NCBI GenBank assembly: GCA_046563655.1
Contig: CM102283.1
Span: 2,232,001-2,296,000 of the forward strand
Length of the DNA stretch: 64,000 bases
DNA from: Yuukianura sp. NJ FZ-2021
Taxonomy: Eukaryota
Direction: 5' to 3'
Under the pieces are notes generated by a model. It saw only the letters and a list, made by a program, of their open reading frames with translations, ran no database searches and was not told the DNA's origin. Shown here one piece after another: positions 1 to 57,729 of the stretch. The translations under genes and the position numbers were made by a program. Each line of letters opens with the position of its first letter. Positions within the stretch are counted from its first letter, which is position 1.

Positions 1-529
1 TTAACTCTGAGTTTATAGCCTTTTTAAGTATTCTTTCCAACTTTTTCTTTGTGTCACAAATATCTTTGTTCATTTTGAAACTAGTGAAGCATGTAGTAGG
101 TTCGGCATAGTAATGTGAAACCGGAAATCAATAATCTGCATTTACTTGTGTAAGATACAAGGTCAAATGTCACTTTCTAAGTGAACTTATAACCACCCTA
201 CTAAAAAGCCACTTTTGGTTTACATAACTTTTATATATAACTTTTTATCACTTTTCAAAGTAACGTTATCTATTTACTTTTCTGAAGTAAGCTTCGATGC
301 GGGCTATTGTTAGTTTAACTTAGTTGGTGATTTGATCCCCCTTGTTCTGCTTCGGTTTCAAAATTTCAGTATAAAAAAAACTGAAAAAAACTTACGTGTT
401 GAAGTGAGAGTTGACACGGTGATGGTTGGAGCAAAAACATTTTGAAACCCGGCAATTTTTAAAACAGAAACGTTTGGTGGAACTGATCAACGTTTGAAAT
501 TCGTCAATTGAAGTTGAAATTTATCGAAA

Positions 530-1591
530 ATGTCCTTCAATCGTCCTGTTCGCAGACCGCTGCCGGTTGTGCTAATTTGCCTATCAGTGATTGTGACAAC
601 GTTCTTTCTGTTCAACGTTCAAAATTTTACACCACCCAATGTTCCCGCCTTTGTATCCAACTTCAAAATCCCGTTCATTCAAACATCATCGGCAAATTCC
701 ACTCAATTCGGAACCGGCCCAGGCGCTGACTTAAAACTCGCTTGGATTCTGCACTTCAACTACGAACCGCATCCAGAAGTGGTCAAAATCCTGCTCCACT
801 TTTACGCCAAACACTTTGTATTTATAGCCATCGTGTGTCCGACGGGGCGAAGTGAGAAACTGCTTCACGTCGATACGTCAACAGTTGACGCCGAAGTGGT
901 TTGGGCTCCTGCGTGTCCAAACTACTTGCGCAACGCAGTGGCAGGACTCATGATGATTTGCTACTCAAAGGGGCTGCAGTTGCTCCAAGCCAGTTCAAAG
1001 GTCAACCAGGTCAACTTTGTCGTTTTGTCCAACGATGACGTTGTGCTCAACATGACCAAAGTGAGGGAGTTTGCGTATGAAGGACATCCAGTCTCACACA
1101 CGTCCCGACCAAAAAAGAAACCGCCAATGTTCGAACCGCCAAAACCCAACGAAACTTATTTTGAAGGCTGGTCATGGGCTAGTTGGTGGCCGGAGTGTCA
1201 AAAACTGTTTACAAAAGTGCCGCAGGAGTTCAAAAACAGATATTTGCACCGATACGGAGACAGAGCAATGAAGGGAGCCGTGGACGTATTCCTTTTGCCG
1301 CTCAAGTCTGTTCCGGAATTCCTGTTCCTAACAAGTATCGTGGGAGAGTGCTGGATCGAAATGAACATTGTAAATGCTTTGGCGATGCTCACTGAAGCTC
1401 CAACATTGTACTCGTACGACACGGAGATGCTGATGTACCATTGGCCACGTTACGGTGCCGTCGTTACACCGGAGGAATTTGAAAAAGCAATTGAAGGAAA
1501 GACAATCATGTCGTTTCATCCGTTCAAACTGAGTTTTCCTAAGCACAGAGCAGCCTTTATAGAGTTCATGACCAAGTACAAACTAAACTAA
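530..1591 (+). CDS. STELLO/DUF288-like putative glycosyltransferase, type II membrane, copy 1 (intronless)
   Basis: 353-aa ORF with basic N-tail and one TM helix. Motifs WILHFN..HFYAKHF, LSNDDVVLN, GAVDVFLLP, IEMNI and FHPFKLS resemble the recalled C-terminal domain of STELLO/DUF288 proteins (..DD..LN, D.YY.P, EIA.P, HP.K.S). Confidence 0.75.
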   Translation: MSFNRPVRRPLPVVLICLSVIVTTFFLFNVQNFTPPNVPAFVSNFKIPFIQTSSANSTQFGTGPGADLKLAWILHFNYEPHPEVVKILLHFYAKHFVFIAIVCPTGRSEKLLHVDTSTVDAEVVWAPACPNYLRNAVAGLMMICYSKGLQLLQASSKVNQVNFVVLSNDDVVLNMTKVREFAYEGHPVSHTSRPKKKPPMFEPPKPNETYFEGWSWASWWPECQKLFTKVPQEFKNRYLHRYGDRAMKGAVDVFLLPLKSVPEFLFLTSIVGECWIEMNIVNALAMLTEAPTLYSYDTEMLMYHWPRYGAVVTPEEFEKAIEGKTIMSFHPFKLSFPKHRAAFIEFMTKYKLN

Positions 1592-2164
1592 CATTCAATT
1601 TAATCTCACTCAACTATTTAGTTTTTGAATAACCATTTCAACGCCCACATTTTGTGGGTGTAATGAATTAACACGACAACAAAACCTTCAATTTAGGCTT
1701 AACTGTGATGTTAGTTGGATTTAATCAAGTTTAATTAATCATTGATTTTAGTATGTAATAACTAATATAATTAACTAATTTTCATTTATTTAAATTTTTG
1801 ATAACTTTTCTTCCCTGGCATTGGTGAGCTGTTTTTACCGTAAAAAATTTTCTTAATTTTTTTTTTGTTATAAATTTGTCTTGTCGTATTGTTGGTATTT
1901 GGCAAAACTAAAATATAATTAATAATTTGCATACTAAAAAATAAAGTAAGTAAAGTTGGTGATTTGATTCCCCTTGTTCTGCTTCAGTTTCAAAATTTCA
2001 GTATAAAAAAAAAACTGAAAAAAACTTACAAGTTAAAGTGAGAGTTGACGCGGTAACGGTTGGAGCAAAAATAAATTTGAAACCCGGCAATTTCTAAAAC
2101 AAAAACGTTTGGTGGAACTGATCAACGTTTGAAACTCGTCAATTGAACTTGAAATTTAGCAAAA

Positions 2165-3199
2165 ATGAAAATGTCGCTAAACCGTCCTGTTCGCAAACCG
2201 CTTCCGGTTGTGCTAATTTGCCTATCAGTGATTGTGACAGCGTTCTTTCTGTTCAACGTTCAAAATTTTACACCGCCCAATGTTCCCGCCTTTGTATCCA
2301 ACTTCAGAATCCCGTTCGTCGCCCAAACATCAAGTGCTGACTTAAAACTCGCTTGGATTCTGCACTTCAACTACGAACCGCACCCAGAAGTCGTCAAAAT
2401 CCTGCTCCACTTTTACGCCAAACACTTTGTGTTTATAGCCATCGTGTGTCCGACGGGGCGAAGTGAGAAACTGCTTCACGTCGATACGTCAACAGTTGAC
2501 GCCGAAGTGGTTTGGGCTCCTCCGTGTCCAAACTACTTGCGCAACGCAGTGGCAGGACTCATGATGATTTGCTACTCAAAGGGGCTGCAGTTGCTCCAAG
2601 CCAGTTCAAAGGTCAACCAGGTCAACTTTGTCGTTTTGTCCAACGATGACGTTGTGCTCAACATGACCAAAGTGAGGGAGTTTGCGTATGAAGGACATCC
2701 AGTGTCACACACGTCACGACCAAAAAAGAAACCGCCAATGTTCGAACCGCCAAAACCCAACGAAACTTATTTTGAAGGCTGGTCATGGGCTAGTTGGTGG
2801 CCAGAGTGTCAAAAACTTTTTGCAAAAGTGCCGCAGGAATTCAAAAACAGATATTTACAACGATACGGAGACAGAGCAATGAAGGGAGCCGTGGACGTGT
2901 TTCTTTTGCCGCTCAAATCCGTTCCAGAATTCCTGTTCCTGACAAGTATCGTCGGAGAGTGCTGGATCGAAATGAACATTGTAAATGCTTTGGCGATGCT
3001 CACGGAACCTCCAACATTGTACTCGTACGACACGGAGATGCTGATGTACCATTGGCCAGCTTACCATGCCATTACGCCGGAGGAATTTGAAAAAGCAATT
3101 AACGGGAAGACAATCATGTCGTTTCATCCGTTCAAGCTGAGTTATCCTAAGCACAGAGCAGCCTTTATAGAGTTCATGACCAAGTACAAACTAAACTAA
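2165..3199 (+). CDS. STELLO/DUF288-like putative glycosyltransferase, copy 2
   Basis: 344-aa ORF nearly identical to copy 1, with an ~10-aa shorter stem. The ATG homologous to copy 1 is at 2171. Confidence 0.75.
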   Translation: MKMSLNRPVRKPLPVVLICLSVIVTAFFLFNVQNFTPPNVPAFVSNFRIPFVAQTSSADLKLAWILHFNYEPHPEVVKILLHFYAKHFVFIAIVCPTGRSEKLLHVDTSTVDAEVVWAPPCPNYLRNAVAGLMMICYSKGLQLLQASSKVNQVNFVVLSNDDVVLNMTKVREFAYEGHPVSHTSRPKKKPPMFEPPKPNETYFEGWSWASWWPECQKLFAKVPQEFKNRYLQRYGDRAMKGAVDVFLLPLKSVPEFLFLTSIVGECWIEMNIVNALAMLTEPPTLYSYDTEMLMYHWPAYHAITPEEFEKAINGKTIMSFHPFKLSYPKHRAAFIEFMTKYKLN

Positions 3200-4517
3200 C
3201 ATTCAATTTAATCTCACTCAACTATTTAGTTTTTGAATAACCATTTCAACCCACATTTTGTAGGTGTAACGAATTAACACGACAACAAAACCTTCAATTT
3301 AGGCTTAACTGTGATGTTAGTTGGATTTAATCAAGTTTAATTAATCATTGATTTTAGTATGTAATAACTAGTATAATTAAGTAATTTTAATTGATTTAAA
3401 TTTTTGATAACTTTTCTTCCCTTGCATTGGTGAGCTATTTTGTTTTACCGTAAAAAATTTTCCTTTTTTTGTTCTTGTCTAATTGTTGGTATTTGACAAA
3501 ACTAAAATATTATTAATAATTTGCATAATAAAAAATAAAATAAGTAAACTAAATTGTCATCATGATTATTACTTAATTAGTTTAAATTTATTTTAACATT
3601 TAATACAATGCAGTACGGCTGTGGGAAAAGTTAAGTATGAAGAAAAATTAGGCAGAGAAGGTTTAAACCTTGAGAGATTAATCAATAATTTCCGAAATTT
3701 AAGGATTTCAAAAAAGTTCCAAAAATTTTAATAAATTTTTTAGAATTTTCAAGAGAAAACTTCCAAAATCTTTCAAAATAGGCCAGCGTGGGTGAAAGCA
3801 TAGTCACTTTTTGGGCTTTCTCCCGGAAATTTTCGGCTGTCTTCGGCCCCTCCTTTTCACTTACAAGCGGCATACAAGCAATCCAAAAATTCTTTCAAAA
3901 AACAAAACAAAACCGAACGGGAGGTTTTTCTAAAAAATTTTTTAAACTTAACTACCGGAAGATATAGTTTTATATATTGCAGACTAAACTTTAAACCGGC
4001 AGGTTATAGTGTAGACAAGTCGCCCTTAAACATAAACTGAATTTCAAATAATAACATTTTTTGTACTTTTACAACAAATTTTGAAATGTTACATTTCAAT
4101 TTTAAGATCTGTGCTATGTTCCACGTATGGACTCACTACGCGATAATGTTAATCTGTGTCTATTCGTGTTATTTTCAAGGTCAACTGACAATTCCTCATA
4201 ACCCAGCACGTTATCACAAGCAAACAAATTGAGTTTACATTTTGCTTCAGATTGACTTTTTAAGTGGAACCGTGCCTAACAAAACAACCATGAAATAGCT
4301 ACGAGTTCAAAACAGTTTTGGTAATAGGATAGTCTTATTATAGTTCAGTTCAGTTCTAAAATTTAAGTGAAAACAAGCCAACTTTAAATACATAGTGAAA
4401 CATGAACTGGTGGAAGTAATCCGGTTGCTGGAATCGATCACACGACCAATAAAGTCAAACGGAAAACGTTTCAACCAAAACACAAAACGTTTCAAACAAA
4501 AAGCAAAACGTTTCAAA

Positions 4518-5570
4518 ATGGTCCGTCCAATCCGTCGATATCTACCGATTTTGGTGATTTTTTCTCTAATGTTTCTTGTCACGCTAGTGCTTTACTCTAA
4601 AATTGCATTCAAACAAAACGTTCCCACCTTTGAAACGTCCAATATCAAAATCCCGTTTGTTGATTGGTCGAACGACACGACGCTCCGCCCCGGCACCGGT
4701 AACGACGTCAAACTCGCTTGGATTCTGCACTTCAACTACGAACCACACCCAGAAGTCGTCAAGATCCTGCTCCACTTTTACGCCAAACACTTTGTGTTTA
4801 TAGCCATCGTGTGTCCGACGGGGCGAAGTGAGAAACTGCTTCACGTCGATACGTCAACAGTTGACGCCGAAGTGGTTTGGGCTCCTCCGTGTCCAAACTA
4901 CTTGCGCAACGCAGTGGCAGGACTCATGATGATTTGCTACTCAAAGGGGCTGCAGTTGCTCCAAGCCAGTTCAAAGGTCAACCAGGTCAACTTTGTCGTT
5001 TTGTCCAACGATGACGTTGTGCTCAACATGACCAAAGTGAGGGAGTTTGCGCACGATGGACGTCCAGTGTCACATATCTCGCCGTCTCTCGATGCCCCAC
5101 CAATGTTCGAGCCACCGGAGGGTGGCAAGGGAACTTATTTCGGTGGGTGGACATGGGGATCATGGTGGCCCGAATGTCAAACCCTGTTTTCTAAAGTGCC
5201 GCTGGAGTACAAAGTCCGTTTTTTGAAAAGGTTTGGAGACAAAGCATTTAAAGGTGGAGTGGACGTGTTCTTTTTGCCGATCGAATCTGTTCCGGAATTC
5301 ATTTTTCTTACGAGTATTGTCGGAGAGTGCTGGATTGAAATGAATATTCCGAATGCTTTGGCAATGCTGTCCGAACCAATCAGATTTTTTTCGTCTAAAC
5401 TTCAAATACTTGCTTATAGGTGGGATGACCTTGGGGTTATAGTGACCCCGGAGGAACTGGAAGCCTTGTTAATGGAACACTCAATTCTGTCTTTTCATCC
5501 TTTCAAATTGAGTTATCCAAAACACAGATCTGCTTTTACAGAGTTCATGTACAAGTACAAATTGAATTAA
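4518..5570 (+). CDS. STELLO/DUF288-like putative glycosyltransferase, copy 3
   Basis: First ATG at 4518 (MVRPIRRYLPILVIF), TM helix, same core as copies 1/2, divergent C-half ending KYKLN. Confidence 0.75.
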   Translation: MVRPIRRYLPILVIFSLMFLVTLVLYSKIAFKQNVPTFETSNIKIPFVDWSNDTTLRPGTGNDVKLAWILHFNYEPHPEVVKILLHFYAKHFVFIAIVCPTGRSEKLLHVDTSTVDAEVVWAPPCPNYLRNAVAGLMMICYSKGLQLLQASSKVNQVNFVVLSNDDVVLNMTKVREFAHDGRPVSHISPSLDAPPMFEPPEGGKGTYFGGWTWGSWWPECQTLFSKVPLEYKVRFLKRFGDKAFKGGVDVFFLPIESVPEFIFLTSIVGECWIEMNIPNALAMLSEPIRFFSSKLQILAYRWDDLGVIVTPEELEALLMEHSILSFHPFKLSYPKHRSAFTEFMYKYKLN

Positions 5571-6729
5571 CTTTGACCCTAGTTAAGTAACTGTGATAAC
5601 TTGAAAACCGGCAGTTAACCAACATTGTGAAGCATTTAATAACTTCCTCACCTTAATTTAATCTCAGTCAAAAAAATTTTGTAGACATAAGTAAATGTTA
5701 TGTTAAAAACGAAGAATACAAATTTAGCAACGAAAAAAATAGTCTAGGCCGATCATAAAAAGAACGAAAAAAGTCAAAGGCGACATACCGTCATTTTAGT
5801 TTAAGTTCAGCCAGCACACACTGTTTCGAATTTCGATCTCTTTGTTTAAAGTGTAGTCAACTGATGCATTGAAATCAGTTTAGTCAAAAAGTAACATTAG
5901 TATAACATTAGTTAACTTTAGTCAATGTTTAACTTAACTTTGTACCATTTTGGAAAGTTTCACATTAGAAAATTTATAATCTTTATCAAAATTCGCAATT
6001 GAGAATGAACAAATTAAAACTTAATTTAACTTAAATTGGAAGTCATTTTGCTAAAATTGTGTATTGAGGTGTTCCATTTTTGAAAATAGAAAAAAATTGG
6101 AACTTGTTTTGGCGTTACTGAATTTTGTGAGAAAATTTTGTGTTTGCGGAAACAAAATCTTCACAACAATTTTGTTTGGTCAAAAATTTAATTTTTCAGG
6201 TGAGTGGACTTCCTCACTGCGACCTCAACTAGTTCATCGGTTGGTTGATTGCGAATTTGTAGATGCTGTTTTTTTCTCAGCTTTTTTCTTTAAAATGGAG
6301 TGAATTTTCAAAAAGAGCGATTAAATGGATGAGTAGTCGGGTTTATGCAACTTATTCAATTTTTTTATTGGTTTCGTTTGAAATTTGAAAATAACCAAAA
6401 TCAATTCCAAAATTACCAAAATTGAATTCAAATTTGACATAAAAATTTCATTTAAGGCAATAAGAAAATTATAATCACTTTTCAACTAGGGAAAGTAATA
6501 ATTAACCTAAATGTTCAAACAACCGACGCGGAAATTTACAAATTACGACATTAATTGCTCAAAGTCAGAGAAAGTGAAGTGCAGTTAAAATAGAGTTGGA
6601 AGAGCAAAATTGAAGCTGACAGGAGCAGTGTTTTGTAAACCTAAGTGACAGTGACATGCGTAGTACAAAAAATTGGATTTCGGAATTTGGCGTTCAGCTT
6701 AAGAAATTTAGTAAATTTTTTTTCTTGTT

Positions 6730-7672
6730 ATGCATTTGTGCCTTCTGTTGTGTATAGTCGCTGGAGCAAATGCGTTTGCAAATTCAGAAAAAGTGAAAGT
6801 TAAATACCCTAATTTTCAAAATGAGCAAAAGATTAATCGAGCAGTTCAATTAACTCCGTACAAAACTGACATGAAACCTTTCAAATTTCAAAATTTCCGC
6901 AATTTTCGCAAAGATGACACCTTGGGGTCAGTGGCGCATCTAAATCCAAGGTATATAGTATATAATTTATATATATATAATTTGTAGTATAAATATAAAT
7001 AATTTAAAATGGGGCAATGTGAGACAAAAGTCCGCGAATGTTTTTTTTTTTTAATTTTTCCGTAGACGCCAACCGGAAATGGCAAGACAAGCACCAATAC
7101 AATCAATCAACCACATCGGAATTACTCGTCGTCGAGGTCAAGGTCAAGGTCACGCTCGGTTTCGGTTGAAAAGCAAAACATGGAATTTACCTCCGGGGAA
7201 TCACGAACCGTGTGACGGTTTGGAAAATTTTGTTCGTGACCTTGAAATTTTAAGTTTCGAATTGACGGTACTCGGATTCATGAAGTACGCAGCAGCTTGG
7301 ATTCTGCATGCTTTTAACCAAGCCTATGAAGCCATGAGTGTTTACGGTATCGATGGATTCGACCGAACTTTGATGCTGATGAACCGAATTCGACCCGGTA
7401 CCGTACCGAATCAAATTTCCCGCCGAACTGAATTCCTCAGTTTTCTAAACCATTTAGTCACAACCTTCATTTCACATCCACTCGGCAATATCATTTTACT
7501 TTTGGACACGCAAGCACAAATTCTAGCATTCGTCAGTCTCGTACTTGATATTTTTACAATTTTTCATGAAATTTTGGCTAAAATGATTGACAAAGTTACT
7601 GGAATGGATTTGAAAGAAATTTTTGAAGGTTATGCTTGTAAAAATCCGTTTTTGAAAAACAAGCTTGCATAA
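6730..7672 (+). CDS. Two-exon putative secreted protein of unknown function (~275 aa)
   Basis: Signal peptide MHLCLLLCIVAGANA. Exon 6730-6950, GT-AG intron 6951-7065, exon 7066-7672 joins in frame with the 197-aa ORF; aataaa follows the stop. Confidence 0.7.
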
Positions 7673-7808
7673 ATAAAAACTCAAAACAAATTTTCTAATT
7701 TTTTTAAACTCAACCTAAACAGTGTGTTTCCTTTTTTTTTTGCTGGAATTGATAAAAAGCTTCTCGAAAGTTAGGTTTCTGAAATCAGTGTTCAGCAGAC
7801 GCTGGAAG

Positions 7809-8804
7809 ATGACACGACGCTGGCAGCGATTGGAAGTTTGGACAATAATTTTAGTTACACTTGGAGTAATTTTGATACTGTTGAAAGTTTTTACGTCAAC
7901 TTCGCACGGAAATTTGCACACCGGAAAAAACGTTAAGAACATCACACTCGCTTGGATTCTGCACTTCAACTACGAACCGCACCCAGAAGTCGTCAAAATC
8001 CTGCTCCACTTTTACGCCAAACACTTTGTGTTTATAGCCATCGTGTGTCCGACGGGGCGAAGTGAGAAACTGCTTCACGTCGATACGTCAACAGTTGACG
8101 CCGAAGTGGTTTGGGCTCCTCCGTGTCCAAACTACTTGCGCAACGCAGTGGCAGGACTCATGATGATTTGCTACTCAAAGGGGCTGGAGTTGCTCCAAGC
8201 CAGTTCAAAGGTCAACCAGGTCAACTTTGTCCTTTTGTCCAACGATGACGTTGTGCTCAACATGACCAAAGTGAGAGAGTTTGCGCTTGACGGACGTCCA
8301 GTGTCACATGTCAGTCCGGCACAAGATAGTCCGAACATGTTTGACCAAGAACAGCCGAAAAAGAAGTATTTTAAAGGATGGAAGTACGCCTCCTGGTGGC
8401 CAGAGTGCAAACAACTTTTTTCAAAAGTTCCCGCCGTGTATCAAAGAAGATTTAAAAAACGGTTTGGAAACAGAGCGATGAAGGGTGGAGTCGACGTGTT
8501 CTTTTTGCCGTCCAAAAGTGTTCCTGAATTTATATTTTTGGCAAAAATTGTTTCGGGATGTTGGATTGAAATGGCTATTCCAAATGCTCTGGGAATGTTG
8601 TCAGTACCGGTGAAATTTCACACTTCTGTTAATGGATTGTTTGTGTATCGCTGGCAAAAACGCGGGAAAATTGTAAGCCCGGGAAAATTTGAACGCGAAT
8701 TGAACAGTAGTACGCCTATGGTGGCTTTTCATCCGTTTAAACTAAGTTTTCCTGAACACAGAACGGCTTTGAGCCAATTTATACCAAAGTATTACCTAAA
8801 CTAA
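7809..8804 (+). CDS. STELLO/DUF288-like putative glycosyltransferase, copy 4
   Basis: ATG at 7809 (MTRRWQRLEVWTIILVTLGVILILL), same core, most divergent termini, ends FHPFKLSFPEHR..KYYLN. Confidence 0.75.
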   Translation: MTRRWQRLEVWTIILVTLGVILILLKVFTSTSHGNLHTGKNVKNITLAWILHFNYEPHPEVVKILLHFYAKHFVFIAIVCPTGRSEKLLHVDTSTVDAEVVWAPPCPNYLRNAVAGLMMICYSKGLELLQASSKVNQVNFVLLSNDDVVLNMTKVREFALDGRPVSHVSPAQDSPNMFDQEQPKKKYFKGWKYASWWPECKQLFSKVPAVYQRRFKKRFGNRAMKGGVDVFFLPSKSVPEFIFLAKIVSGCWIEMAIPNALGMLSVPVKFHTSVNGLFVYRWQKRGKIVSPGKFERELNSSTPMVAFHPFKLSFPEHRTALSQFIPKYYLN

Positions 8805-40369: not shown

Positions 40370-43300
40370 TTACTGAGTGTACACTCGACGCAGTTTTCCA
40401 GCTCCAGCCATTGACCCACCAGGATGCATTAGAAGATGATCTGTAGGCGTTACCCGGCGACCGGAAGATGACGACGAAATGATGCTGGATCGGAACGTTT
40501 CTCCTCGAAGCGAAGCTCTCATGTTGTTTCGTCGTTGAACTGGAGTTGGTTCCACTGGTTCCATCGGTTCTTCATCTTCTGGTTTCGGCCTAGTAATTAA
40601 TTCGATTAATTAAAATTTTGAAAAGCTACTTGTTTGACAATTTGTAATTTTCAAAATTTTCCCAAATTGGTTACTTGGCACAGAGTGGACAGTTCCAGAA
40701 ACTTTGATGCTTGCCAAAATCTTCTCCCTCTTCCAAAGTGTTCGGCAAGTCCTCTCCGAGCGTTTCCGGAAGAAACAGGCACGCTGTACCCGAAATGCAT
40801 GCGAGAATCCCGAGCAGAGTCAGCGACAGCGTAGGATTAGTCCGACCCTGGAAATTTTGAACTTGACCTTTGACCTTGACATAGTTAACATAAACCTAAA
40901 CTAGCATAATACACGGACTTACCAAAGAGGCAATGAACGGAGAGACGATGGAGGCAACGTAACCCATGATGTGAATGACGTTGACACCTTGAGCGCGGAT
41001 GACCGTCGGCAGGAGTTCGGCAGCATACTGGAGTCCAATGTTAAAAGCGACGTTGACAAACAATCGACTTATTAAGGCCGTCACCAGAGCCAAGGTCACC
41101 ACTTCAAGTATACAAAAAGGTATTACCACAAAGTCATTCGCCGAAAAGGTCACAGGCAAGGTTCCTTGACAGCCAAATTCAACTTTGTTTAACAGGTTAC
41201 GCAATAACTCAAGTTTTCAAAAACTTTGAGTCCAACAATTTTTTCCACTTTTTTTGTTTTTTCCCCTTTTCTGCTTTGAATTTTATCAATTGAAAAGTCC
41301 AAGGTTCGTAAACCAAAAAGGTAGCACGCCATTTCGCCGAATCATTTACTACGAAGCGCATTTCGACGAATGAATTTCGTCGAAACGAATTACTACGAAA
41401 GTCGATTTACTACGAAAGGTACTTTACTTCGAAATCGAACTACACCGAAACGAATTACTACGAAAGTCGCTTTACTACGAAAGTCGCTTTACTACGAAAG
41501 TCGCTTTACTACGAAAGTTGAATTACTACGAAAGCCCAAAAAGATGTGGTTGAAGTAAACTTGGGCGGCCAGACTGTCCCCACCCGTTTTTAATTTTCGC
41601 GCTGTTTCCATTGTACCCACCCAGTGTCCCCACCGGATGGATACATTTGTCCCCACCACAACCAAAAGTAGTACGTCCACCTAGCGGTAATACAATAACC
41701 TTTGAATTCAAGCTGGCAACGTTCTTTACTTTTTGATTTGGTAAATCCTATTATATTTTCCCGCGCCGAAGGCGCGGCGTTAGGTTTGGTTTTACTTCTA
41801 TCACATTAACAATTACTATTAAACGTTAAATTTAATGTTAGGTCGTAGTAATTTAACTTTCGTAGTAATTCAAGTTTCGTAGTAAAGCGACTTTCGCTGT
41901 AATTTAACTTTCGTAGTAAAGCGACTTTCGTAGTAATTCGTTTCGGTGTAGTTCGATTTCGAAGTAAAGTACCTTTCGTAGTAAATCGACTTTCGTAGTA
42001 ATTCGTTTCGACGAAATTCATTCGTCGAAATGCGCTTCGTAGTAAATGATTCGGCGAAATGGCATGGAACCAACAAAAAACAACAACGTTTTTTCTACAC
42101 CTAGTCACACAGTGTTGTAGGAAATAGAATTCGGTTGTAGAACCTTGGAAAAGCCCATCTCTCTGAATTTTTTAAATTCCATTTACCACACGAATCGCAA
42201 TTGGACCTTGGCGAATTCAGTTTAAATTTTGTGCAAAAACTTAAAAGTGGAGTTATTGCCTAACCTGTTAAAGAAAAGTATTTCATTTTTTATAAAAGTC
42301 ATTGCTTACTTCCCTGCGGGAGAAAGGCAGAAGCAAGGCTAAACCCTCCGGATAACATCATGGCAGTGAAGGCCAGCCAACGTCGCCCCACACGATCCAG
42401 AGTGAAGATGACCAACATATCTGCAGGAAACTCCGTACTTGATGCAATTGCAAACGAAATGAAAACGTTGTCACCCAGATTCAAAATCTGAAAAATTTCG
42501 TGTCATTTCGAAAATTATTTTCAAAAATGAAGAAATGTATGAGATATAGCAAACTTACGTTTCTTGAATGTCCATCGTAAACCAATGCAATCAAAGCCCT
42601 AAAAACACAACTTTGAATTTATAATTCCCAAAATTTCGGAATTTCAAAATGCAAAACTTACCAAATGATTGTAAGGAAGAGAAAGTTTTTGGCAATTCTC
42701 GGTTTCTTGAAAGCTTCTAGAAGACTTGGTTCAACTTCTTGCGAAAATTCTTCGTACAATTTGTTTGCACCATCCTAAAATTAAAATTTGTGTTAAATTA
42801 TGTCACTGTAAACTAAACGTTGTAAACCTAACAAAATTTTAACTTATGTTGTATAGTTACCTCAAATTCCACAAATATCTCTTCCGAAACATGTTTTCGA
42901 TTCACTTTGGCAAAACTTCGAAGAATTTGTGTTGCTTCTCTGGCTCTACCTTTTGACAACAACCAACTAAATTCAGAAAGTTCCAAAATCGCAATTAATA
43001 AATTTTCCAAAATCGAAATTTTTTTGCAAAAAACAAAAAAAAAAAAAAAAACAAAAAAAAAACAACAACAAATTTTAAAAATACCGTGCGCTTTCCGGAA
43101 CAATGCAAATGGCTCCCAGAGCCAGTGACAACGGTAAACTAATTGCGAGAGCATAGATTATCCAATTCTGAATTGAAAGAGCAAGTGCCGGAAGTAACAG
43201 CGTTCCAATCGTGTAGAAAACAGCAATGGACAAATTGGCAACTAAAGTACGATATGTCGGACCAACATACTCCAGAACTACAAAACCAAAAAAAAAATGA

Positions 43301-46817: not shown

Positions 46818-49800
46818 ATGGAGGATGATAATGGGTAAGACGTAAATGGGAAATTGATTATGGGTGGAAGGTTATTGGAGGTTGGACAAACGGTAGGTAA
46901 TTGATGAAAATCTCCTCGTGCGTTATTTAGTTAACAGATGGCAATTGTAGTAGTACGTAAGTTCTAAGATATAAATGTTTATCCCGTCGGATATCAATTG
47001 AGATGAGAGACGATAAGTGGAAGTCATAATGTGTTATGTTTTCATTACTTCCTTAGGATAAGCAGTGGCTTCCGGGACTGGTACATCGACAAGATGGATC
47101 CGGACAGCTCTACGGGCGGACTAAACGAGAATTCGGAGAGTGGGGAATTGGATTCTCTGCCAGGAGATGCTGAGTACCATTTCAACAGTAATTCCCGGGA
47201 TTCGCTGTCTAAGCAGAGCATGAACTCTGAGCGTACAAACATCGATGCTTTAGACGACACCGCTCGTGACACAATCATTGTGCCACCACTGGATGATTCC
47301 AGCAGCTCAACGAGTCTCAAACGTCATCCGAATTCAGTTCTAAAAGGAGGAGAGGAGCAGGATCACGATCTTCTGGACTTTGGAGGTGACGACGATGGAG
47401 AGAAGGAGGAAGGGGAAGAGGACGATTCTGATGAAGGAGAACTTCCAGATGATCCGAGTAGTGACGAACGATCTGCCGGAGAACTTTCGAGTCATTCAGC
47501 AGTCGACTGTGAACGTTCTACGGCTGGTCTGGAAGATGGAGAAGTTGACGACGATTGTCCTCCACAAGCTACGGGAAAACGAATGATCAAAACGTCAAAA
47601 ATTCGTGAAAAGGAGGAGCCTATTGGCGATGAACTGGAAGAAGGCGAAGTGTCAGATGACGAGGAACGGCGAAATAAGGGACCGATGCCTATTTGCAGAT
47701 TTTTCGGTAAAGGACAATGTACTTGGGGAACTAATTGCAGGTACGCTGTGTTGTAGATCGTTTTAGCTTTGGTTAATTAATCATAAGTTAATTAACTTCG
47801 GTTTTAACTGTGTTACAGGTTCCTTCATCCTGGAGTCATTGACAAAGGCCTGTACACGATGTTTGACAAAGTGAAGCCACCACCTCCGCCTGTGCCACCA
47901 ATGTTCCTTCCAAAGCCGGGTTTACTTGGACATGCTCCACCGAATTTTTTAATGCCACCAGCACTTCGGATGGAGCCGCCCATCATTGAAACTCCGTGGG
48001 AACGGGCACAGAGAGAAGCAAAAGAGGTATATTCGTACATTCTTGGTGCGAAATTTTAAAGATATTTCACTTCACATTCTCACTTCGAGTGCTAAATTTT
48101 TATAGCTCATAAAACAGTCTGAGAAAATCAAGGAGACAGACATCGACTTTGAAGATAAGAAAATGAATTTGACACTGACACAAGAAGAGTTCGATAAAGA
48201 AAATGACTACTACGTTAAGAAGCTTGGAACGCCTGAAAGAGAGCCACCACCGTAAGACTTCGCTTTCCTTTTCACACGTTAATCGATTAACTCAACGTAT
48301 TTTTAACTTAATAGTGAAGACTTGGAGCCAGAAATCAATGAATGGGATCTTCCATCGCGGCGTCCTTTCCCGCCAAAAATTGATCCCAACTTTGTCCGTG
48401 AGAGAGTTCATCACTTGAAACCACCAGGACGGGGCCTACGACAAGCTCCACCACGTGATTCTATCAGAGAAGCTCCACCCCTACACGAACCAGAGGTAAT
48501 CTTTGGCCTAATGAAGCAAGTACCACAGAAACTTACTGTTTACTGTACTGCAAGGATAATTCCATATACTGGAAGTATCGTTAATGAATATTGTTGGGTT
48601 TGATCAGGTTCGTATGGTAAGGGAGTCGAATCTGCGAAGACCTTCTCGCTTTCATCATCCTGACTCTCCACCTCCAGTCGGTCGAGTTCCACGAAGAAGT
48701 GGCAGCTACGAAGAGTAAGAAATTCGTGTTCATCGTGAACGTCAATGACCTTGACCTTAATAAGTATGTATTGTGCTTATTAGGGAAGCTGAACCACGTC
48801 GTGTAGGCCGTGACCGAGGAAAGCCAAAGGATGACTGGCATGATCCTTGGGCCAGACCACACGAGCACAAATCTGGGAAGCGGACGAGCTTATCCAAAAG
48901 GTCACGAAGCTACTCCAGTGCCTCGTCAAGGTCATCTTCTTCATCTTCCCAGTTCTCTAAAAGTACTAAGAGCAGCAAGTCCAGGTCGAGGTCAAGGTCA
49001 CGAAGCTCAAAGTTTTCCAAGGGATCACCCAGGCAGAGGAAGACGAAGGAAAGCGTTGTCAGAAAAGCTCCGCCACGACGGCTATCACCTAAGCCCAGTA
49101 AGTTCTGTGTACAATTGAAATATTTTTTTGCAATTTTTTGCAGAAATGTGCAAAAAAAAAAAAAAAAGTTCTGAAGCTTGCAATGTTTTTATGCTTTTCT
49201 TATTTTTAGTGCGAATTGCTCCACCACTTCCATCGAAAGATGATTTTGGAGACAGACGAGATGGATTTGGTTTCGGACAAGGACAACAAGGTTACAATCG
49301 TCCTCCACGATATGCCCCGCCTCCCCCACCAATTCGAGGAGGAAGTGGTGGCGGGATGAAGGATCGGATGAACGATAAGCCTCCACCTAACAAATTCATG
49401 TAAGAGCTACACTCACCTCTTCAGCGTTCCGATTAACTTTTACATGCTTTTACATCTTTTTGTTTGTCATTTTTTAGGAAAGAACGAGAGATGAGAGGCT
49501 CGAAGCGGCCACTGCTGGAGAGTTGGACTGCTCGATCTTCATCTTCCCGGTCACGTTCAAGAAGTCGCTCATTTTCAAAGACTCCGCCTGTCAAACGTGG
49601 ACCTGGACCGAAGCGATCCAAGTTCTCACGAGAGCGATCTCGCAGCAAATCTGTGTCTCCGAGGAAACACCGATCCTGGTCAAGGAGTTCAAGCTCGTCT
49701 TCACGAAGTTCTGTAGATAAGTTCGGACCAGCTCCGGCACTAGCTAAGCGTAAGAAATTCAAAAGCCTTTCGAAAGAACATTTTTTTAAGTTGAAACTTG

Positions 49801-50617
49801 AAACTCGTTTTTTTAAATTGTTAGAGCGAACTTTTCCTGACCTGGATAAGGATAAAGAAAGGAAGCCGAAAATGGCTCTTGACAAAAATGCGCTCGTGAA
49901 GCCAATCAAGACAGAGCCAAAGGATGAACCGCGACCCAGAATTAAAACGGAGGTAAATTCAAAACTAACGTTGACCTTGTTGATCTTTCCCGCTCAAAAA
50001 TTTCATTCGAAACAAAGTGACTACTTTTCATCATACGACACAAAGTGGACATTTGTATTCATACGAGACAATGAAGTCACTTTTGTAACAAAAGTTTTGT
50101 TAACTCATGTTTTTTGTTAGCAGCAATCCAAAGCCAAGGTGAAGATGACGTTGAAACCTTCAAGTGGAATCAAGATGAATAAAAGTATTTTGGATAAATT
50201 GGCCGATGATGTCATGGGTAAGAAAGTTCAAAATTATAATTGACACCTCTACTCTCAATTGCTTTACAAGGAAACGCTTATTAGTTTCCATTCATTCAAC
50301 TTACGTGCTCCTGCATCAGTTTTTCGCAAAAAGTGATTGACTCATGTGGAGCTTCATTCATTCAATCAATGACTCCCCGTTTTCCTGTTTTTCATGTTTG
50401 TTTTCATGTTTTTTGTGTGTTGTCCTTAGGTGTTGATGATGATGACAATTCCAATCCACGAAGTGGTGGTGGAAATTCAAGAACTGCTTCAGGCGATGAA
50501 GACCAACATCAACAAGCGGCTCCTGGACGCATGAAACAGTCCCGAAGAGAAGAACTGTTGAAGCAATTACAAAAAGTCGAAGAGGCAATTGCCAAAAAAC
50601 GATCCAAGATTTCATAA
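46818..50617 (+). CDS. ZC3H18: Zinc finger CCCH domain-containing protein 18 (NEXT/PAXT-CBC adaptor), multi-exon
   Basis: Acidic N-term with ELEEGEVSDD, ICRFFGKGQCTWGTNCRFLHPG, ETPWER, DDWHDPW, RS-rich region, C-term SRREELLKQLQKVEEAIAKKRSKI. The start is either micro-exon 46818-46834 or the ATG at 47094. Confidence 0.9.
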
Positions 50618-50929: not shown

Positions 50930-51121
50930 TGGTTACATCAAAATTTACTCTGTTTGGTGGTTCCAGCAAAAACTTTGCTGGTTCCATCAAAAATCTGGCT
51001 GATTCCATCAAAAATCTTACTGGTTCCATCAAAATTTTTTGCTAGTTCAGGCAAAATTTTTTGCTGGTTCCATCAAAATCTTTGCTGGATCCGTCAAAAT
51101 TCTTTGCTGGCTCCACCAAAC
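50930..51121 (+). repeat. Minisatellite, ~21-bp unit (ctggttccatcaaaatctttg), ~8 copies
   Basis: Repeated ggttccatcaaaa core. Confidence 0.9.
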
Positions 51122-51516
51122 TTGTAAGTTAGGATGATGTTTAGCGTTACATTAAAAATTTTGTTTGTACTTATTGTGAATTATTAAATTCATATAAAAA
51201 GTTACCACGACCACTTAATTCTGTTGGTTTGGCCTTAACCTAATCTTAATCCTAAAGGCATTATATGGACTGTTCGAGATCAACTTTTGTGTTTTTCATA
51301 AGAAAACGAAAAATGGCACTAAAATTATATCCCTGGCTTGATCTTCTTATCACAGCAGCCTCGAAATTGCGAAAGTTTTAAAATAATTGTCATTTTGTAA
51401 TTTGTGAGAAAAGGTTTGTTGTGATTGGTTGATTTCTTAAAAACTAAAATGGCGGGAATATAAATTAAGTTTAGGGAAAAGTGCGGGAAAATTCAAAATT
51501 TAAAATCATGTTACTA

Positions 51517-54500
51517 CTACCTACCATAACCACGCCAAAAATTAAGTACAAATACTACTATGCTGGTGGAAACTTGTAGACTACGACTATAACTTAGGAC
51601 TAGCGCATTCGAACTGTCTAAAAATGGAAACTTCGAATTGTTGTTGCTAAATTGTCGATGTTGTGAAGATGGTGAGGGGATATCACTATCACTTTGAGTT
51701 GTAACAAAACTTTCTTCGCCACTCCACCTTAACCGATTTTCTAAAACCGTAGTTTCTCTAAGAATGGTTTGAACGTTAGCCAAGGAGTCACAGATTGCTG
51801 ATGTGATGGAATTGGCAGTATCCATGAACTCCGCAGTTTCAGACGATGCTGGACTGTCTTCTGTTTCGGGTGGACAGCGGTGTGAGGGGTCGATTGACCT
51901 TGGTTTGATGTTGGCCGTTTTGGGACAACCGTAGAAACACAGTGGAACGCCTTTGGTTGTTCCACGGTTGAGTGTGGACGATACTTGGGAAGCATTCTGC
52001 TCTGGCATTCGGATTGTCACAGACAGAGTTGAGATCGGTAAATGGCCAATTACCTGTTATGTACAAAAAAAAATTAAAATCTGAAATTTTGAAACTTGTT
52101 AGAAAAGTAAGTTTTTGTGTTAAAATTGTTCGACTATTACCGTATTACTTACGCGAATAATCTCGACTACCGTAGAGTCATACGGAAAGTGGATTCGCAC
52201 ATGCTCACTTCGCGTTACTTCTTCAATGTAAACTGTTCCCGCCGTAGACGATCCGTCTGAGAACATTCCAGGTACCTCCACAAAATTTTGAAAAAAACGA
52301 GTTTTAGCAAATGTTCAAAAAACGTTTGCAAATGTTTTCAAAATTGCAATATTTTAACTCACCTCGTCGAATGTTGCCTGGTAGGTTTTCCGTTCAGCAC
52401 ATTCGTTATTTTTGACTATCACAGTGACCTGCGTACAACCAATAAAAAAAACACATTAGAAACAGGAACTTTCAGGATTTGATGAATTGCGAAATCAACT
52501 TTTTTGAAAACAACTTTTGGAAATCCACTCCAGCTTCTACATAATACATAGTATTTAAACGTATCTCCACCGTTCCGGTTTCAACTGGTGTTGGACAGGT
52601 GAGTGGTGATGACAAAGACAGACGGTGTGAACCGGTCTATCAATTAAGTTAATTTGCAAAAGGTGTAAATTTAATATTTAACTTTTAACTAACAGTGTTG
52701 TATTTCAAGGTCAGGTATTTTTTTTTGTTCCGTTTGAAAGAAACTGAAATAAATGTAGAAAAAAAAAACTGAAAAATTAAAAATAAAACGAAAGAAACTA
52801 CTGCTGTTTTGTTTAGTTTCTTTCACTTGGAGGTTTTCTTCGTTTAGGATTTTTTTTTCAGTTACTTTCAGATTTTTTCACTTTTTAGTGGAAAGTGAAA
52901 TATTTAACTTCTAACCAAGGTGTCTTGACAACATAAAACTTTTTGTTTAATAGGGTAGGCAATAACTCCATCTTTTAAAAAATCCCGAAAAAACATAGTT
53001 TTGAACCAATTTACACTTGAAAGTGAAAAAAAATACCAGTTTCATTTGACAGATTTTTTGAATTTTCTTAAAAATTTGAGCTTTTGAGCTTCTGGGCCTT
53101 TTTTAAATTCAAGTCCCGATAACAACAGAGGTAAACTCATTTTCGAAAATTTTGGTAAAAAAAATTCAGAAGTCAAGTTATTACCTAACCTGCTAAAGAA
53201 AAAGTATTCTTTGTTTATTAAGCTTGCTACTAAACTTACCAAGGTCGTTGTAGTAATATCTTTGGGTAGTGGGTTGAGGCCTCCCTTGTTCGTAATTTGT
53301 ACAGCGACGGAGTCCAGGTCCAGAAGTGACCAGGCCCCTGACAGGGAGCAGTAAGGGACATCAGTGAAGTTCAAGGGATCTGCGAAGCTCTTGAGATTTG
53401 TGAGGCCGTACAAGGCACAGCCGACTGTCGGTTCGTTCGGAGAGACTCTCGGGGTACATCGAGATGCATAGGCTCTTCTGGATCCACCGCCGTGACCGTG
53501 TCCATGGTGACCGTGGTGGACATGGACATTGGTGGAAGTGGACATGGACGAGGTCAAAGTGTGACCTGTCCCACTTCCCACTGCGTCCGCAGAGCAATTG
53601 TTCCCTAGTCGCACGTTTTCCGTTTGAATCCGCTGGGCCAGACGGACGAAAAAATGGTAATTCCTAAAAAGAAAATGAACATAAATCAAACTGATTTTCA
53701 AAAATGAAAAAAGTGTTTCCTTCAAAAAACGAAAAAATAAATCAAAGAAATGAATCGCCGGAAAGTTGTCAGACGGAAAATATTGTTGAAAAGACATTTA
53801 AATTTGAATATGGCAAAAGCCAGGAGCACAAAGGCATAAACTACAGTCAAAAAGTTTTTGCAATTTTCAACTTCTCGTATAAAACGGTGTCAAATTTTGC
53901 GCAAAAGGCGTCAAAACAGCTTAAATTTCAAAAGTTTTATGAATTATGAGACGTTTGCAATAATTTCAAAAGCCTAAAACAACCCACATGGAATTCTAAC
54001 TCTCTCTTCACTTTTTGGTTTTATTAAAAAAAAACGATGATGTACAAAGTGTCAAAAGATCAAGAGTTTCGGTTTTCCAAAACCTCAAATTCAAGCCAAA
54101 AATTCAAAAACGTGCAAATACAACATTTTTCTTCAAAAAATAGTTCCGAAAATACGTTATTATTGGAACCCAAAAAATTTTAAACCTGCAAACACAACAT
54201 TTTTCATAAAAATTCCGAAAATAATAGGCGAACCTAAACCTGAACCAACGAAAAAAAAATCTGGAAACAAAATTTTTCAATCCTATGAAAAAAAAATCAG
54301 GAAACAAAATTTTGCAATATTATAAAAAAAAAAACCGAAACAACAAAACTGTATCTCTGTTTCTGTATCAAAACGTCGAAAAATTTTAAACTCTGCTTGA
54401 ATTTTCGTTTTTTCTTCTGTACCACAAAAAAATTCTTTTCTCCCACAAAATTTCAAAGTGCAACAATTTTTTGCCCAAAAAAATATAACGTGTAAAATAT

Positions 54501-57500
54501 GTAACAATGTGCTAAAAATGAAAATTATGAAAATTACTCCCAAAGATAATAAAATAATAATAACTTATACAAAAATTCTTTTATGTCGTATGTTTGAGCG
54601 TGTAGTTTTTCATCGACTAAAAACATGGCAGTACGCCTTAAGGAGCAAGATACAAAAAGTCATATCGTAAATCAAGCTCCTTGAACATGACGGATGTATT
54701 CGTAATTCAAGTTTCTAAGGAATTTGTACTTGTACGAATAAAAAAAAAGTTTTTTAGCCTTCGAGCGCGCGAGTCGTGCTCCTTGGCTGGTGGGATGTTG
54801 GCGAAAAACACGTTGTTTCTGAGCCAAGTTGTTAAGATGACGGTCAAACAAATTTATTGAGTCCGCTTTCTATTTCATTATGATAACACAAAATAAAATT
54901 TTCGTACACAACAAACCCATCAACGCCAAATTCCAATTCGGAAAAACAAAATTTTTCAAAAATTTGTCTGTTTTTATACCATTTTTCATAAATTATCTCA
55001 CTGTGCAAAGAGTGTGAGCGTGAAAATTACATTTTGCCATACTTTCAATTTGTCTCTGGAAAATATGGCGAAAATAAAAACTTTTTTTTACACCACAAAA
55101 AAAAAAACAGCAACATTTTTTTTGTATCTAAACTTTTGAAAACTTCGCCCGCGCTTTTTTAAGTTTGTTGTGTTTGGACCATAAACTTTTACTGCTTTCC
55201 AAATTTACTTTTTAAAAAACGGACAAAAATTTATTTGCGAAAAGAATCAGCAGAATTTTTTTTTAAATTCTTGCTTACTTACAGTAAAAGTTTTTAAGTT
55301 TGAGAAAAAGTGAAGCCGCTTTATGTTGACTTTACGATGACGATTTTTCGCGGAAAGAAAAATTGCAAAGCTTCTGGCTTTGTTGTGATTCGTTTCTCGT
55401 CAATTTGACACCCGAACGTGATTTCGCATCTTTTCGCAACATTAGTCCATTTTTGCAACAAAGATTATGAGGCTAAAACACTTTTGAGAAGTTCCAAACT
55501 TTTGGCAACTTCGCTCTCAGTTTTGACTTTTTAAAAATAAGCTGACAAGAGTGTTTAAACAAAAAGCAGATGTGAAATGTACCGCTTAGCTTCTGCTTGG
55601 AACCATACTGCACAACATTGCAATTTTTTACTACTTTTTTGGCAAACCTCAAATAACTTTTTTTGAAGTCTAAGCATTTATTTTAGGTAGTTCCATTGCC
55701 AATCTGTCTAAGAGCTTTTTAGAACTCGGAAAGTAATAATTGCCACGACCTTTGCCATTTTGGCTTCAACCACCAATTTTCAACACCCTCGCATCACTTT
55801 GGTGCAAAAATTTAAAAATTTGCCATTTCTGTCTCAAAATGTGCACGAATCTTGTCAAGTTTAGCGACAACTCCGCCTAATCCTTGCTTCTTAAATTTCA
55901 ATAATGCTTAAAAGCGTGGGCTAAATGCGAAAAATGGGAAACGACACTTGCGAAAATTGCAAAAACGAGTAACTTTATGTCAGTTTTTTGCAAAAAGCGG
56001 AAACTTTTTGTTAGTTTTCTGCAAAATAGAGTGATTTCATGCTAGGTTTCTGCAAAAAGGAGTAACTTTATGTTATATTTTAGCAAAATGGAGTGACATT
56101 ATGTTAGTTTCTGGCAAAAAGGACAAATGGGATGTTAAAATTCTAGGAAAAGGAGTCTGTAAGTAAAATTTAAACATTAGTCTTAATTGCTAAAAACTTA
56201 CAAATCGCCTCGACAGCTCTTGGACTGTTTCTTGGTACAGTCCTTGAGTTCATTTTGAGTGGAACAAATAGTGGAAGTGACCCCAGGGGGAATTTGAGAC
56301 GGAATTTCGTCACGGTAAGTGTCGTACAGGGATTTGAGAGTGTTGTAAGTATCCAAACATGGCTCAAAGTCACAGGAACTGTCGCCTAAAAACACACAAA
56401 AAAACACATTTTGAAAAACTGAAAAGACATTTGACAAAATTTAATTGACTTGATTAAAACTGACAGAGATTCAGAACTAAATTCGGCCTAAAATCCGCTT
56501 AGAACTAGTTTTGTATTTTTGACTAATTTTTAAAAGAATTTTGCATCGTCATGAAAAAATAGACTATGCAGACTCTTTCAAACCAACTGCAATATACTTT
56601 GACCTGACTCTCACGCTTTTCAATCGCTAAAATGCATGTCATAAAATTGTAAAAATTTATGACTCGAAGATTTAAGCGTTTTTAACAATTTGCGATCTTC
56701 ATGGTGTGAGAACAATCAAATTATGAGGGTTTCTAAGTATTTAAGGGGAGAGTTCACACGTAATTGAATGGAAAAACTTTTTAGCTTTTGCAATTTGCAA
56801 TAATAAATTATTGCAATTTAGATTGCAAGTTTTTAGTGCTGCTGACTCTTAATAGGTTTTGGCTAATCGGCTGCTTTGAGAGTCTGGAACATAATTGTTT
56901 TAAAATTCTTTTCAATTTAAAGTGCTTTATGTTAAAGTTATTTTTAAACACTTTTTTCAAAAATTATTTCAAATGCTAATTTTTTTCTAACGTCTTTAAC
57001 AACTTGAATTCTACGGATGATTTCAAAACAAAAAAAAACGAGTTTCTTAGAACTGAGATGGGAGTTTTACATCGACAGAAGGGAAAAAACCATGGAAAAA
57101 AAAAGTTAGCGTGATTGCGTGACAGGATTTGACCTCTGACCTCCTTTTCTCAATGCCCTTTCTGAATGGTGTGTTAATTGAATTAAAGTTGGAGATACTA
57201 GATACACTCTGGTCCATAACTTTTTAGAGTGAATAAGTTAAAGTTAAAGTAAAAAAAAACAAGCTTGAAAAAAAAGTTATGCTTTTTAGTTATAAAAACT
57301 TGAAAAAAGTAATGCTTTGAACTTTTTTGTACCAATTTTTTTGGACTAATTTGATTTGAAAGGAGCGGAATTGCAAATAGAAGAAAATTGAACTAAAAAG
57401 TAAAAAGTTAAAGGAAAAGTTGTATGCAATTTCCCTAATGAATTGAGAGGCCTCATTTCCTTTTGCGTCAAATTAATTAAATATTTGCACAGAGGAAACA

Positions 57501-57729
57501 AAACAAATAATTTACTTTTAACCAGAAGGCGGGAGATTATAATTTGCAACCAGCCAGACGCTAGAATGTCAAACGCTGAAAAACGCTAATTTTTCTTCAA
57601 TGCTAACTTTTTAGCAATTTTTCGGTTCGTTTACTAAATTAATCAAAAACGAAACTTACCATGGCAGAAGGTCAAAATTAGCACTAGAATGCCAAGGCTG
57701 GAGACACTCGTGATGACAGACTGTAACAT
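51517..57729 (-). CDS. RGM: Repulsive guidance molecule (RGM/DRAG-1 family) homolog, divergent, ~467 aa
   Basis: Exons 57729-57660 (signal peptide), 56385-56202, 53663-53240, 52428-52363, 52275-52153, 52053-51517 splice in frame. CRGDLNYH, C.L.GAW.L.D...VQITN, VTVIVK..EC...K.YQA..DE, P..F.DGS, RMPE, LCFYGCP; hydrophobic C-tail. Confidence 0.88.
52938..53208. mobile_element. Short MITE family A copy in RGM intron
   Basis: tttaatagggtaggcaataactc (52946-52968) and aagttattacctaacctgctaaa (53175-53197) are imperfect inverted repeats matching the ends at 41188/42272. Confidence 0.65.
55960..56120 (+). repeat. Minisatellite, ~31-bp unit (gagtaactttatgttagttttctgcaaaaa), ~5 copies
   Basis: Repeated gagt.actttatgt.agttt..gcaaaa in an RGM intron. 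Confidence 0.8.

Follow-up and report, generated by a model that had tools for sequence, protein, structure and literature searches.

A springtail-type RGM ortholog of Yuukianura in which GLTN replaces the GDPH autocleavage motif

Repulsive guidance molecules (RGMs) are BMP co-receptors and ligands of neogenin. Mutation of the four-residue self-cutting site of an RGM causes iron-overload disease in people, and many D domains of VWF and mucins fold without the Gly-Asp-Pro-His (GDPH) motif. RGMs are described in a review as auto-cleaved and as present in arthropods except Drosophila (PMC10084454). Cleavable members of the VWD fold carry GDPH at the turn where RGMs have it; autocleavage is reported to begin with an attack of the Asp side chain on the backbone of the same residue, and cleavage to stabilize the FCGBP domain (PMC10880436); in cleaved RGMB, Pro169 is the new N-terminus. 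Uncleavable hemojuvelin mutants are reported to lose BMP co-receptor activity partly or wholly, some being less surface-competent, and the same paper relays, second-hand, a preference of neogenin for the two-chain form of hemojuvelin and of BMP-2 for the single chain (PMC4395201). Reviews already mention RGM on cells in single-chain form. Neogenin is reported to bind the RGM beta-sheet opposite the GDPH-bearing one (PMC10880436, PMC7354924), and RGMB to bind the FN5 and FN6 domains of neogenin together (PMC8063088). Caenorhabditis elegans DRAG-1, described as a lone invertebrate RGM, promotes BMP signaling, associates with UNC-40 (PMC4433240), and requires its GPI anchor (PMC8595726).

The window, i.e., the whole 64-kb stretch of Yuukianura DNA analyzed here, carries an RGM gene of six exons on the minus strand, from 57729 to 51517, with a spliced frame open over 467 aa. 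At residues 171–174 its product has Gly-Leu-Thr-Asn (GLTN; codons GGC CTC ACA AAT, by direct read), in the context CALY-GLTN-LKSF, where the RGM family has GDPH. A sequence-only reading of this DNA had proposed GLTN in place of GDPH in an intact six-exon frame that keeps CRGDL, and all of this is borne out by the direct read and the splice model; CRGDL spans the exon 2/3 joint. The features of the gene are:

57660..57729, minus strand: exon 1, with the start codon, a hydrophobic stretch at aa 1–23 (putative signal peptide by eye), and a GT donor
56202..56385, minus strand: exon 2, encoding the helical N-terminal domain of RGMs, in which five Cys and the RGDL loop lie (PF06535, E 3e-4)
53240..53663, minus strand: exon 3, end of the N-domain, His/Gly-rich linker, and first strands of the vWF-D-like C-domain (PF06534, E 0.003)
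53485..53535, minus strand: run of the His/Gly-rich linker between the two RGM domains, with seven His within twelve residues
53396..53407, minus strand: GLTN site in the middle of exon 3, replacing GDPH
53351..53371, minus strand: insertion of five residues behind strand 2 that holds an N-glycosylation sequon (Asn183) and Asp-Pro at 180–181; a gap relative to RGMB
53330..53338, minus strand: GAW motif, with Ala195, which corresponds to RGMB Ala186, on the neogenin-binding face
52363..52428, minus strand: exon 4, C-domain strands and Cys236 (RGM profile, E 1.9e-8), with canonical splice sites
52153..52275, minus strand: exon 5, C-domain strands, with Ile288 at the family Arg (RGMB 283, hemojuvelin 288; PF06534, E 0.026)
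51517..52053, minus strand: exon 6, end of the C-domain, relocated Cys349, Cys377, tail, and stop (PF06534, E 0.0024)

The five introns all begin with GT and end in AG. The acceptor of exon 5 is GAG (52276–52278), a rarer type, chosen because it keeps the frame and is matched by the relatives; a CAG acceptor close by would disrupt the frame. The boundaries of exon 3 are identical in the relatives P0253 and P0254. His-rich linkers are also seen in Folsomia and in P0008, and may bind metal.

The tail-to-tail neighbor at 47007–50617 (plus strand) has several exons and encodes a CCCH zinc finger (PF18044, E 3e-6) along with an RS-rich tail; it presumably resembles ZC3H18. A degenerate tandem repeat with a unit of about 21–22 bases (50940–51125) lies downstream of both convergent genes. 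Farther away, at 518–8801 (plus strand), four long single-exon frames of 348–399 aa each have an N-terminal hydrophobic stretch, and two have nearly identical starts; they look like a tandem gene family, possibly encoding type II membrane enzymes.

Matches of single exons to the Pfam families RGM_N and RGM_C each fall under the curated cut-off when taken alone, and RGM_C (PF06534) with neighboring exons joined scores 27.6 bits. A profile of 50 RGMs recognizes five exons in the window, with E from 1e-23 to 2e-8, all else having E >= 0.7. The helical RGM_N domain is present with its RGD/RGN loop and six Cys, and the relatives also carry PF06535; the vWF-D-like beta-sandwich of RGM_C is seen by Pfam, by the RGM profile, and by Foldseek and structural alignment of a model of the Allacma protein. 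At the first hairpin, GLTN is found instead of Gly-Asp-Pro-His. The homology to RGMs proposed from the letters is thus upheld by Pfam, profile, and modeled fold, and on these grounds we consider the Yuukianura protein an RGM ortholog by descent and fold, outside the autocleaving GDPH type.

The Allacma protein (49% identical to the window protein), modeled from an alignment in which GDPH members abound, matches RGMB with a Foldseek E of 5e-14 and a Z of 21.9 (rmsd 1.7 A over 152 residues), and its N-domain matches those of RGMB and RGMC with Z of 7.8 and 7.2, the structures matched including 4uhz_B and 4ui1_D. A search of the ESM Atlas yields RGM clusters only. In the sequence alignment of the Allacma fusca relative with RGMB, GLTN pairs with GDPH without a gap; in the structural alignment, Thr155 of the model corresponds to RGMB Pro169, the alignment start in five of six RGMB C-domain rows. 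RGMB positions are counted along a vertebrate RGMB-like row from Asp168, which recovers all eight residue names given in the papers.

The nearest named proteins, 46–49% identical, are those of Orchesella dallaii, Allacma fusca, and Folsomia candida (P0002, P0003, P0005), annotated merely as unnamed, uncharacterized, or RGM A. These neighbors suggest that the genome is that of a springtail. GLTN is present in all 11 nearest relatives covering the site, all in the top-scoring group and comprising these three species and eight fragments, one of which (P0012) duplicates a Folsomia stretch. Since three codons differ from those for GDPH and GLTN recurs in 11/11 near relatives, it is not a sequencing slip. 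In the 11 complete rows GLTNLK never varies; in this stretch 30 of 63 columns are invariant, and over whole proteins 138 of 373. In a quick tree of 36 chosen rows, from which the four motif columns were not removed, the four full springtail-type RGMs group together (support 100); their stem measures 2.74 changes per column, and the end branches 0.25–0.64.

Alignment with metazoan RGMs, which the sequence-only reading had suggested, shows GLTN fixed in springtail-type RGMs. Among 153 retrieved proteins and the window protein, GDPH is seen in 106, GLTN in 12, and another motif in 13, the remaining 23 being misaligned fragments or proteins in which the site is uncovered. All six named insect, crustacean, and myriapod RGMs (Nilaparvata, Schistocerca, Frankliniella, Cherax, Trinorchestia, Strigamia) have GDPH, so its loss arose on the springtail line and was then held. 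GLTN reads as a clade-fixed remodeling rather than decay. The sequence-only reading had noted neither this fixation nor the loss of the motif in other lineages.

With the springtail GLTN group excluded, GDPH is replaced in 13 of 119 other sampled proteins. Clade III nematodes have GSRH, in 15 of 83 rows (P0165–P0247) and also in Loa and Toxocara; the records are P0156, P0165–P0178, and P0180, with genera including Ascaris, Toxocara, Brugia, Loa, and Enterobius. Other replacements are GDRH in Steinernema, GAPD in Rhodnius, GHTH in Cyprideis, GSWH in two Trichoplax records, and GDLH in Hypsibius, with five further variants in unassigned records; the singletons may be errors or dead genes. In the quick tree, the GSRH group is nested among GDPH-bearing nematodes, so that this loss is separate from that in springtails, giving at least two independent clade-wide losses.

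The reading from sequence had also called for a search for a canonical GDPH paralog, and none was found in the 98.7 Mb genome with PF06534, PF06535, or a GDPH query. PF06534 gives two matches, both inside this gene. PF06535 gives five, one of them exon 2; the two weakest (E 0.285) have stops. The two best remaining PF06535 matches (L008, L009) were rejected as RGM paralogs, having two in-frame stops. They are 72% alike over 292 bases, and both resemble window positions 41155–41211; given the stops and these likenesses, they are a dispersed repeat. The translation of this non-coding repeat, found in the window also near 42232–42277, mimics RGM_N at 25 bits, above the cut-off. A shorter GDPH-bearing query matched this GLTN exon alone in the genome; a full insect RGM query missed even this gene, gave no other match, and is uninformative on paralogs. 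In six frames of the 64-kb window there is no second exon 3 and no GDPH. Yuukianura RGM thus appears to be a single ortholog, a GDPH paralog or alternative exon being not found among the best-scored candidates, a scope in which its absence is not proven.

The face that bears the motif is altered at further positions. In the springtail rows (RGMB numbering), position 162 is Gly, Glu270 becomes Lys/Arg, position 281 is Asp/Glu, and Arg283, conserved in 89% of 90 GDPH rows, becomes Ile. By spacing, RGMB Arg283 corresponds to hemojuvelin Arg288, although a one-residue shift (as in HMMER) pairs it with the next Lys/Arg. Mutation of Arg288 is reported to block hemojuvelin autoproteolysis (PMC4395201), and in the ternary complex of RGMB the motif-bearing face is described as pointing towards GDF5 (PMC7354924). 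The five-residue insertion has a sequon in all 11 complete rows; its Asp-Pro is seen in five of 11, including the window protein, and is missing from all three named species. Near the C-terminus the Cys-Val-Phe-Asp motif is gone and one Cys has moved, but the Cys count of the mature chain remains 14, which suggests a re-routed disulfide Cys349–Cys377. Cys167, which would tie strand 1 in the two-chain form, is retained.

Leu and Thr stand where autocleavage needs Asp and Pro, as had been noted from the letters, and Leu cannot act as Asp; on established chemistry, self-cutting at the GLTN site can be considered excluded with high confidence. As no nucleophilic attack is possible with the Asp side chain gone, the protein should mature as one chain, and springtail RGM is very probably made uncut. 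The exon 6 tail is moderately hydrophobic and may be a GPI signal: its best 13-residue hydropathy is 1.93, with a charged end, compared to 2.3–3.3 in seven relatives, the Allacma record being devoid of a hydrophobic tail.

The loss of GDPH had further been proposed as a possible uncoupling of the protein from neogenin/Frazzled. This does not hold as argued: neogenin binds the opposite face, and the equivalent of Ala186 is kept in 10 of 11 rows, so that motif loss alone does not uncouple the two. In RGMB, A186R is reported to weaken NEO1 binding (PMC8063088). Equivalents of Gln198, Thr200, and Thr217 are kept in all rows covering them, and those of Lys221, Lys230, and Tyr232 are kept as well; the family-conserved Lys215 is Leu in 11/11, and Pro188 and Asn192, conserved in the family too, are also altered, where the assignment of residues other than Ala186 to the neogenin face follows from strand alternation, not coordinates.

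On the receptor side, the genome has one neogenin/Frazzled gene (G000:C5, about 4213700–4219425; L005, 6997–7780). Between FN5 and FN6 it encodes a Pro/Ser/Thr-rich spacer, inside one exon, that is 23 residues longer than in NEO1 (19 in the metagenome relative L007, 1819–2400); the Trp-to-Trp distance is 59 aa here, 55 in L007, and 36 in NEO1. This comparison sets two neogenins against NEO1, and the spacer may extend beyond springtails. The FN5–FN6 junctions of Drosophila Frazzled and C. elegans UNC-40 are short. The FN4–FN5 linker is longer too, and about five residues are added to the FN5 loop on which RGM specificity depends in vertebrates. A prediction of the complex between the Allacma RGM C-domain and the FN5 and FN6 pieces of this genome gave 0.45, 0.25, and 0.00, with a median below the mark of 0.34; run without an alignment, with two species mixed and the receptor in two pieces, it carries no weight as evidence. 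Uncoupling thus has on its side the spacer and the second-hand report of a two-chain preference (PMC4395201), but not the motif. We put some binding to neogenin/Frazzled, perhaps weakened or rearranged by the spacer, at slightly better than even.

The contacts of RGMB to BMP are given as Arg100, Gly101, Leu103, and His106 (PMC7354924). They are retained in Yuukianura RGM as RGDL..H by sequence comparison, the equivalents Arg82, Gly83, and His88 of the contact loop being encoded in exon 2, which is consistent with the BMP-binding N-domain proposed from the letters. The genome has 13 matches to TGF-beta family ligands; two of them (G000:C2:9331706-9332026 and G000:C6:39984-40304) have identical scores and frame lengths but lie on different contigs, pointing to recent duplication or assembly redundancy. 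As for the suggestion that the uncut protein is a BMP co-receptor or decoy, the N-domain contacts speak for a co-receptor and the loss of this activity in uncleavable hemojuvelin mutants speaks against it, though these are destabilized point mutants, which tempers their weight; the decoy role found no direct support.

The reading we prefer, with a probability of about 0.58, is that of a single springtail-type RGM ortholog that has given up autocleavage and serves as a single-chain, probably GPI-anchored BMP co-receptor. Leu and Thr in place of Asp and Pro would prevent the self-cut and leave a single mature chain; the rebuilt face and the glycan loop would substitute for the stability that cleavage lends to other VWD domains, so that this RGM may fold and get to the surface, where human point mutants often fail. 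Probably GPI-anchored, it would bind BMP ligands by the kept N-domain and tune BMP signaling; with the neogenin interface largely kept on the RGM side, some binding to neogenin/Frazzled may persist, possibly altered by the FN5–FN6 spacer. This spacer keeps alive a tentative alternative, about one in four in its strong form, in which the two proteins co-evolved towards uncoupling, RGM rebuilding its cut face and neogenin gaining some 20 residues, to yield a single-chain, neogenin-independent BMP modulator (a co-receptor, or a decoy if shed). The spacer splits the two domains that RGM clamps, the enlarged FN5 loop and the Leu at Lys215 point the same way, and the two-chain preference would fit; set against this are the seven kept residues from Ala186 to Tyr232, though these are perhaps structural, and the restriction of the spacer comparison to two neogenins.

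It is unlikely that the protein becomes two pieces by another route, i.e., a host protease cutting the basic His/Gly-rich linker or acid hydrolysis of the Asp-Pro eight residues downstream. The linker has Arg-rich stretches, vertebrate RGMs are reported to be cut by furin and SKI-1 (PMC8063088), and the Asp-Pro of the window protein is shared by four other rows; it is missing in six of 11, however, and has no preceding Gly and following His, and the linker is not conserved. More improbable still is a neofunctionalized surface protein whose rebuilt face has a new partner and whose BMP binding is weak or gone. The very long stem branch with strong conservation after it, the charge reversal on the face lying towards GDF5 and netrin in RGMB, and the weak Pfam match of the N-domain would agree with this; the kept RGDL..H and all six N-domain Cys would not, and no partner is in sight. 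A decaying gene or an assembly error, to which the uncommon GAG acceptor would point, is largely refuted by the open six-exon frame and by GLTN in 11 relatives from separate records.

Because point mutants misfold, tests of cleavage that use them are confounded. The conserved, probably uncut RGMs of springtails and clade III nematodes would be folded comparators, opening the way to a structure of the uncleaved state and to a direct test of the need for cleavage in trafficking, BMP co-receptor activity, and neogenin binding. Co-evolved uncoupling, if true, would mean that the two RGM signaling arms had come apart in nature, and would provide an answer as to the purpose of GDPH cleavage. The surprise is tempered, since the replacement recurred several times and single-chain RGM species have already been described. 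No description of a springtail RGM or of an RGM lacking GDPH turned up in our literature search; earlier notice of variants is possible.

The window protein shares GLTN, the sequon insertion, the face changes, and the relocated Cys with the springtail RGMs of Orchesella, Allacma, and Folsomia, and differs from them in the His/Gly-rich linker, the downstream Asp-Pro, and the weaker hydrophobic tail. The insect, crustacean, and myriapod RGMs belong to the same family and are the nearest named arthropod comparators; GDPH is kept in all six. With vertebrate RGMa, RGMb (Dragon), and RGMc (hemojuvelin), the Yuukianura protein has in common the domain order, the RGD-loop and His of the N-domain, the vWF-D-like fold, the 14 Cys of the mature chain, and the GAW motif; it differs in GLTN instead of GDPH, Ile instead of Arg283, the glycan-site insertion, and the Cys shift, at about 28–29% identity. 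The VWD domains of mucins, VWF, and FCGBP have the same fold (Z 10–15 with the Allacma model), whereas RGM is without their C8/TIL/E modules. Among nematodes, the clade V relatives of C. elegans (Necator, Haemonchus, Pristionchus) carry GDPH, hence DRAG-1 does not prove neogenin binding by an uncut RGM. A parallel in motif loss is clade III nematode RGM/DRAG-1, in which the Asp-Pro pair is likewise replaced clade-wide, but by other residues, with His and the face around the motif retained and Arg283, Lys215, and Glu270 mostly kept.
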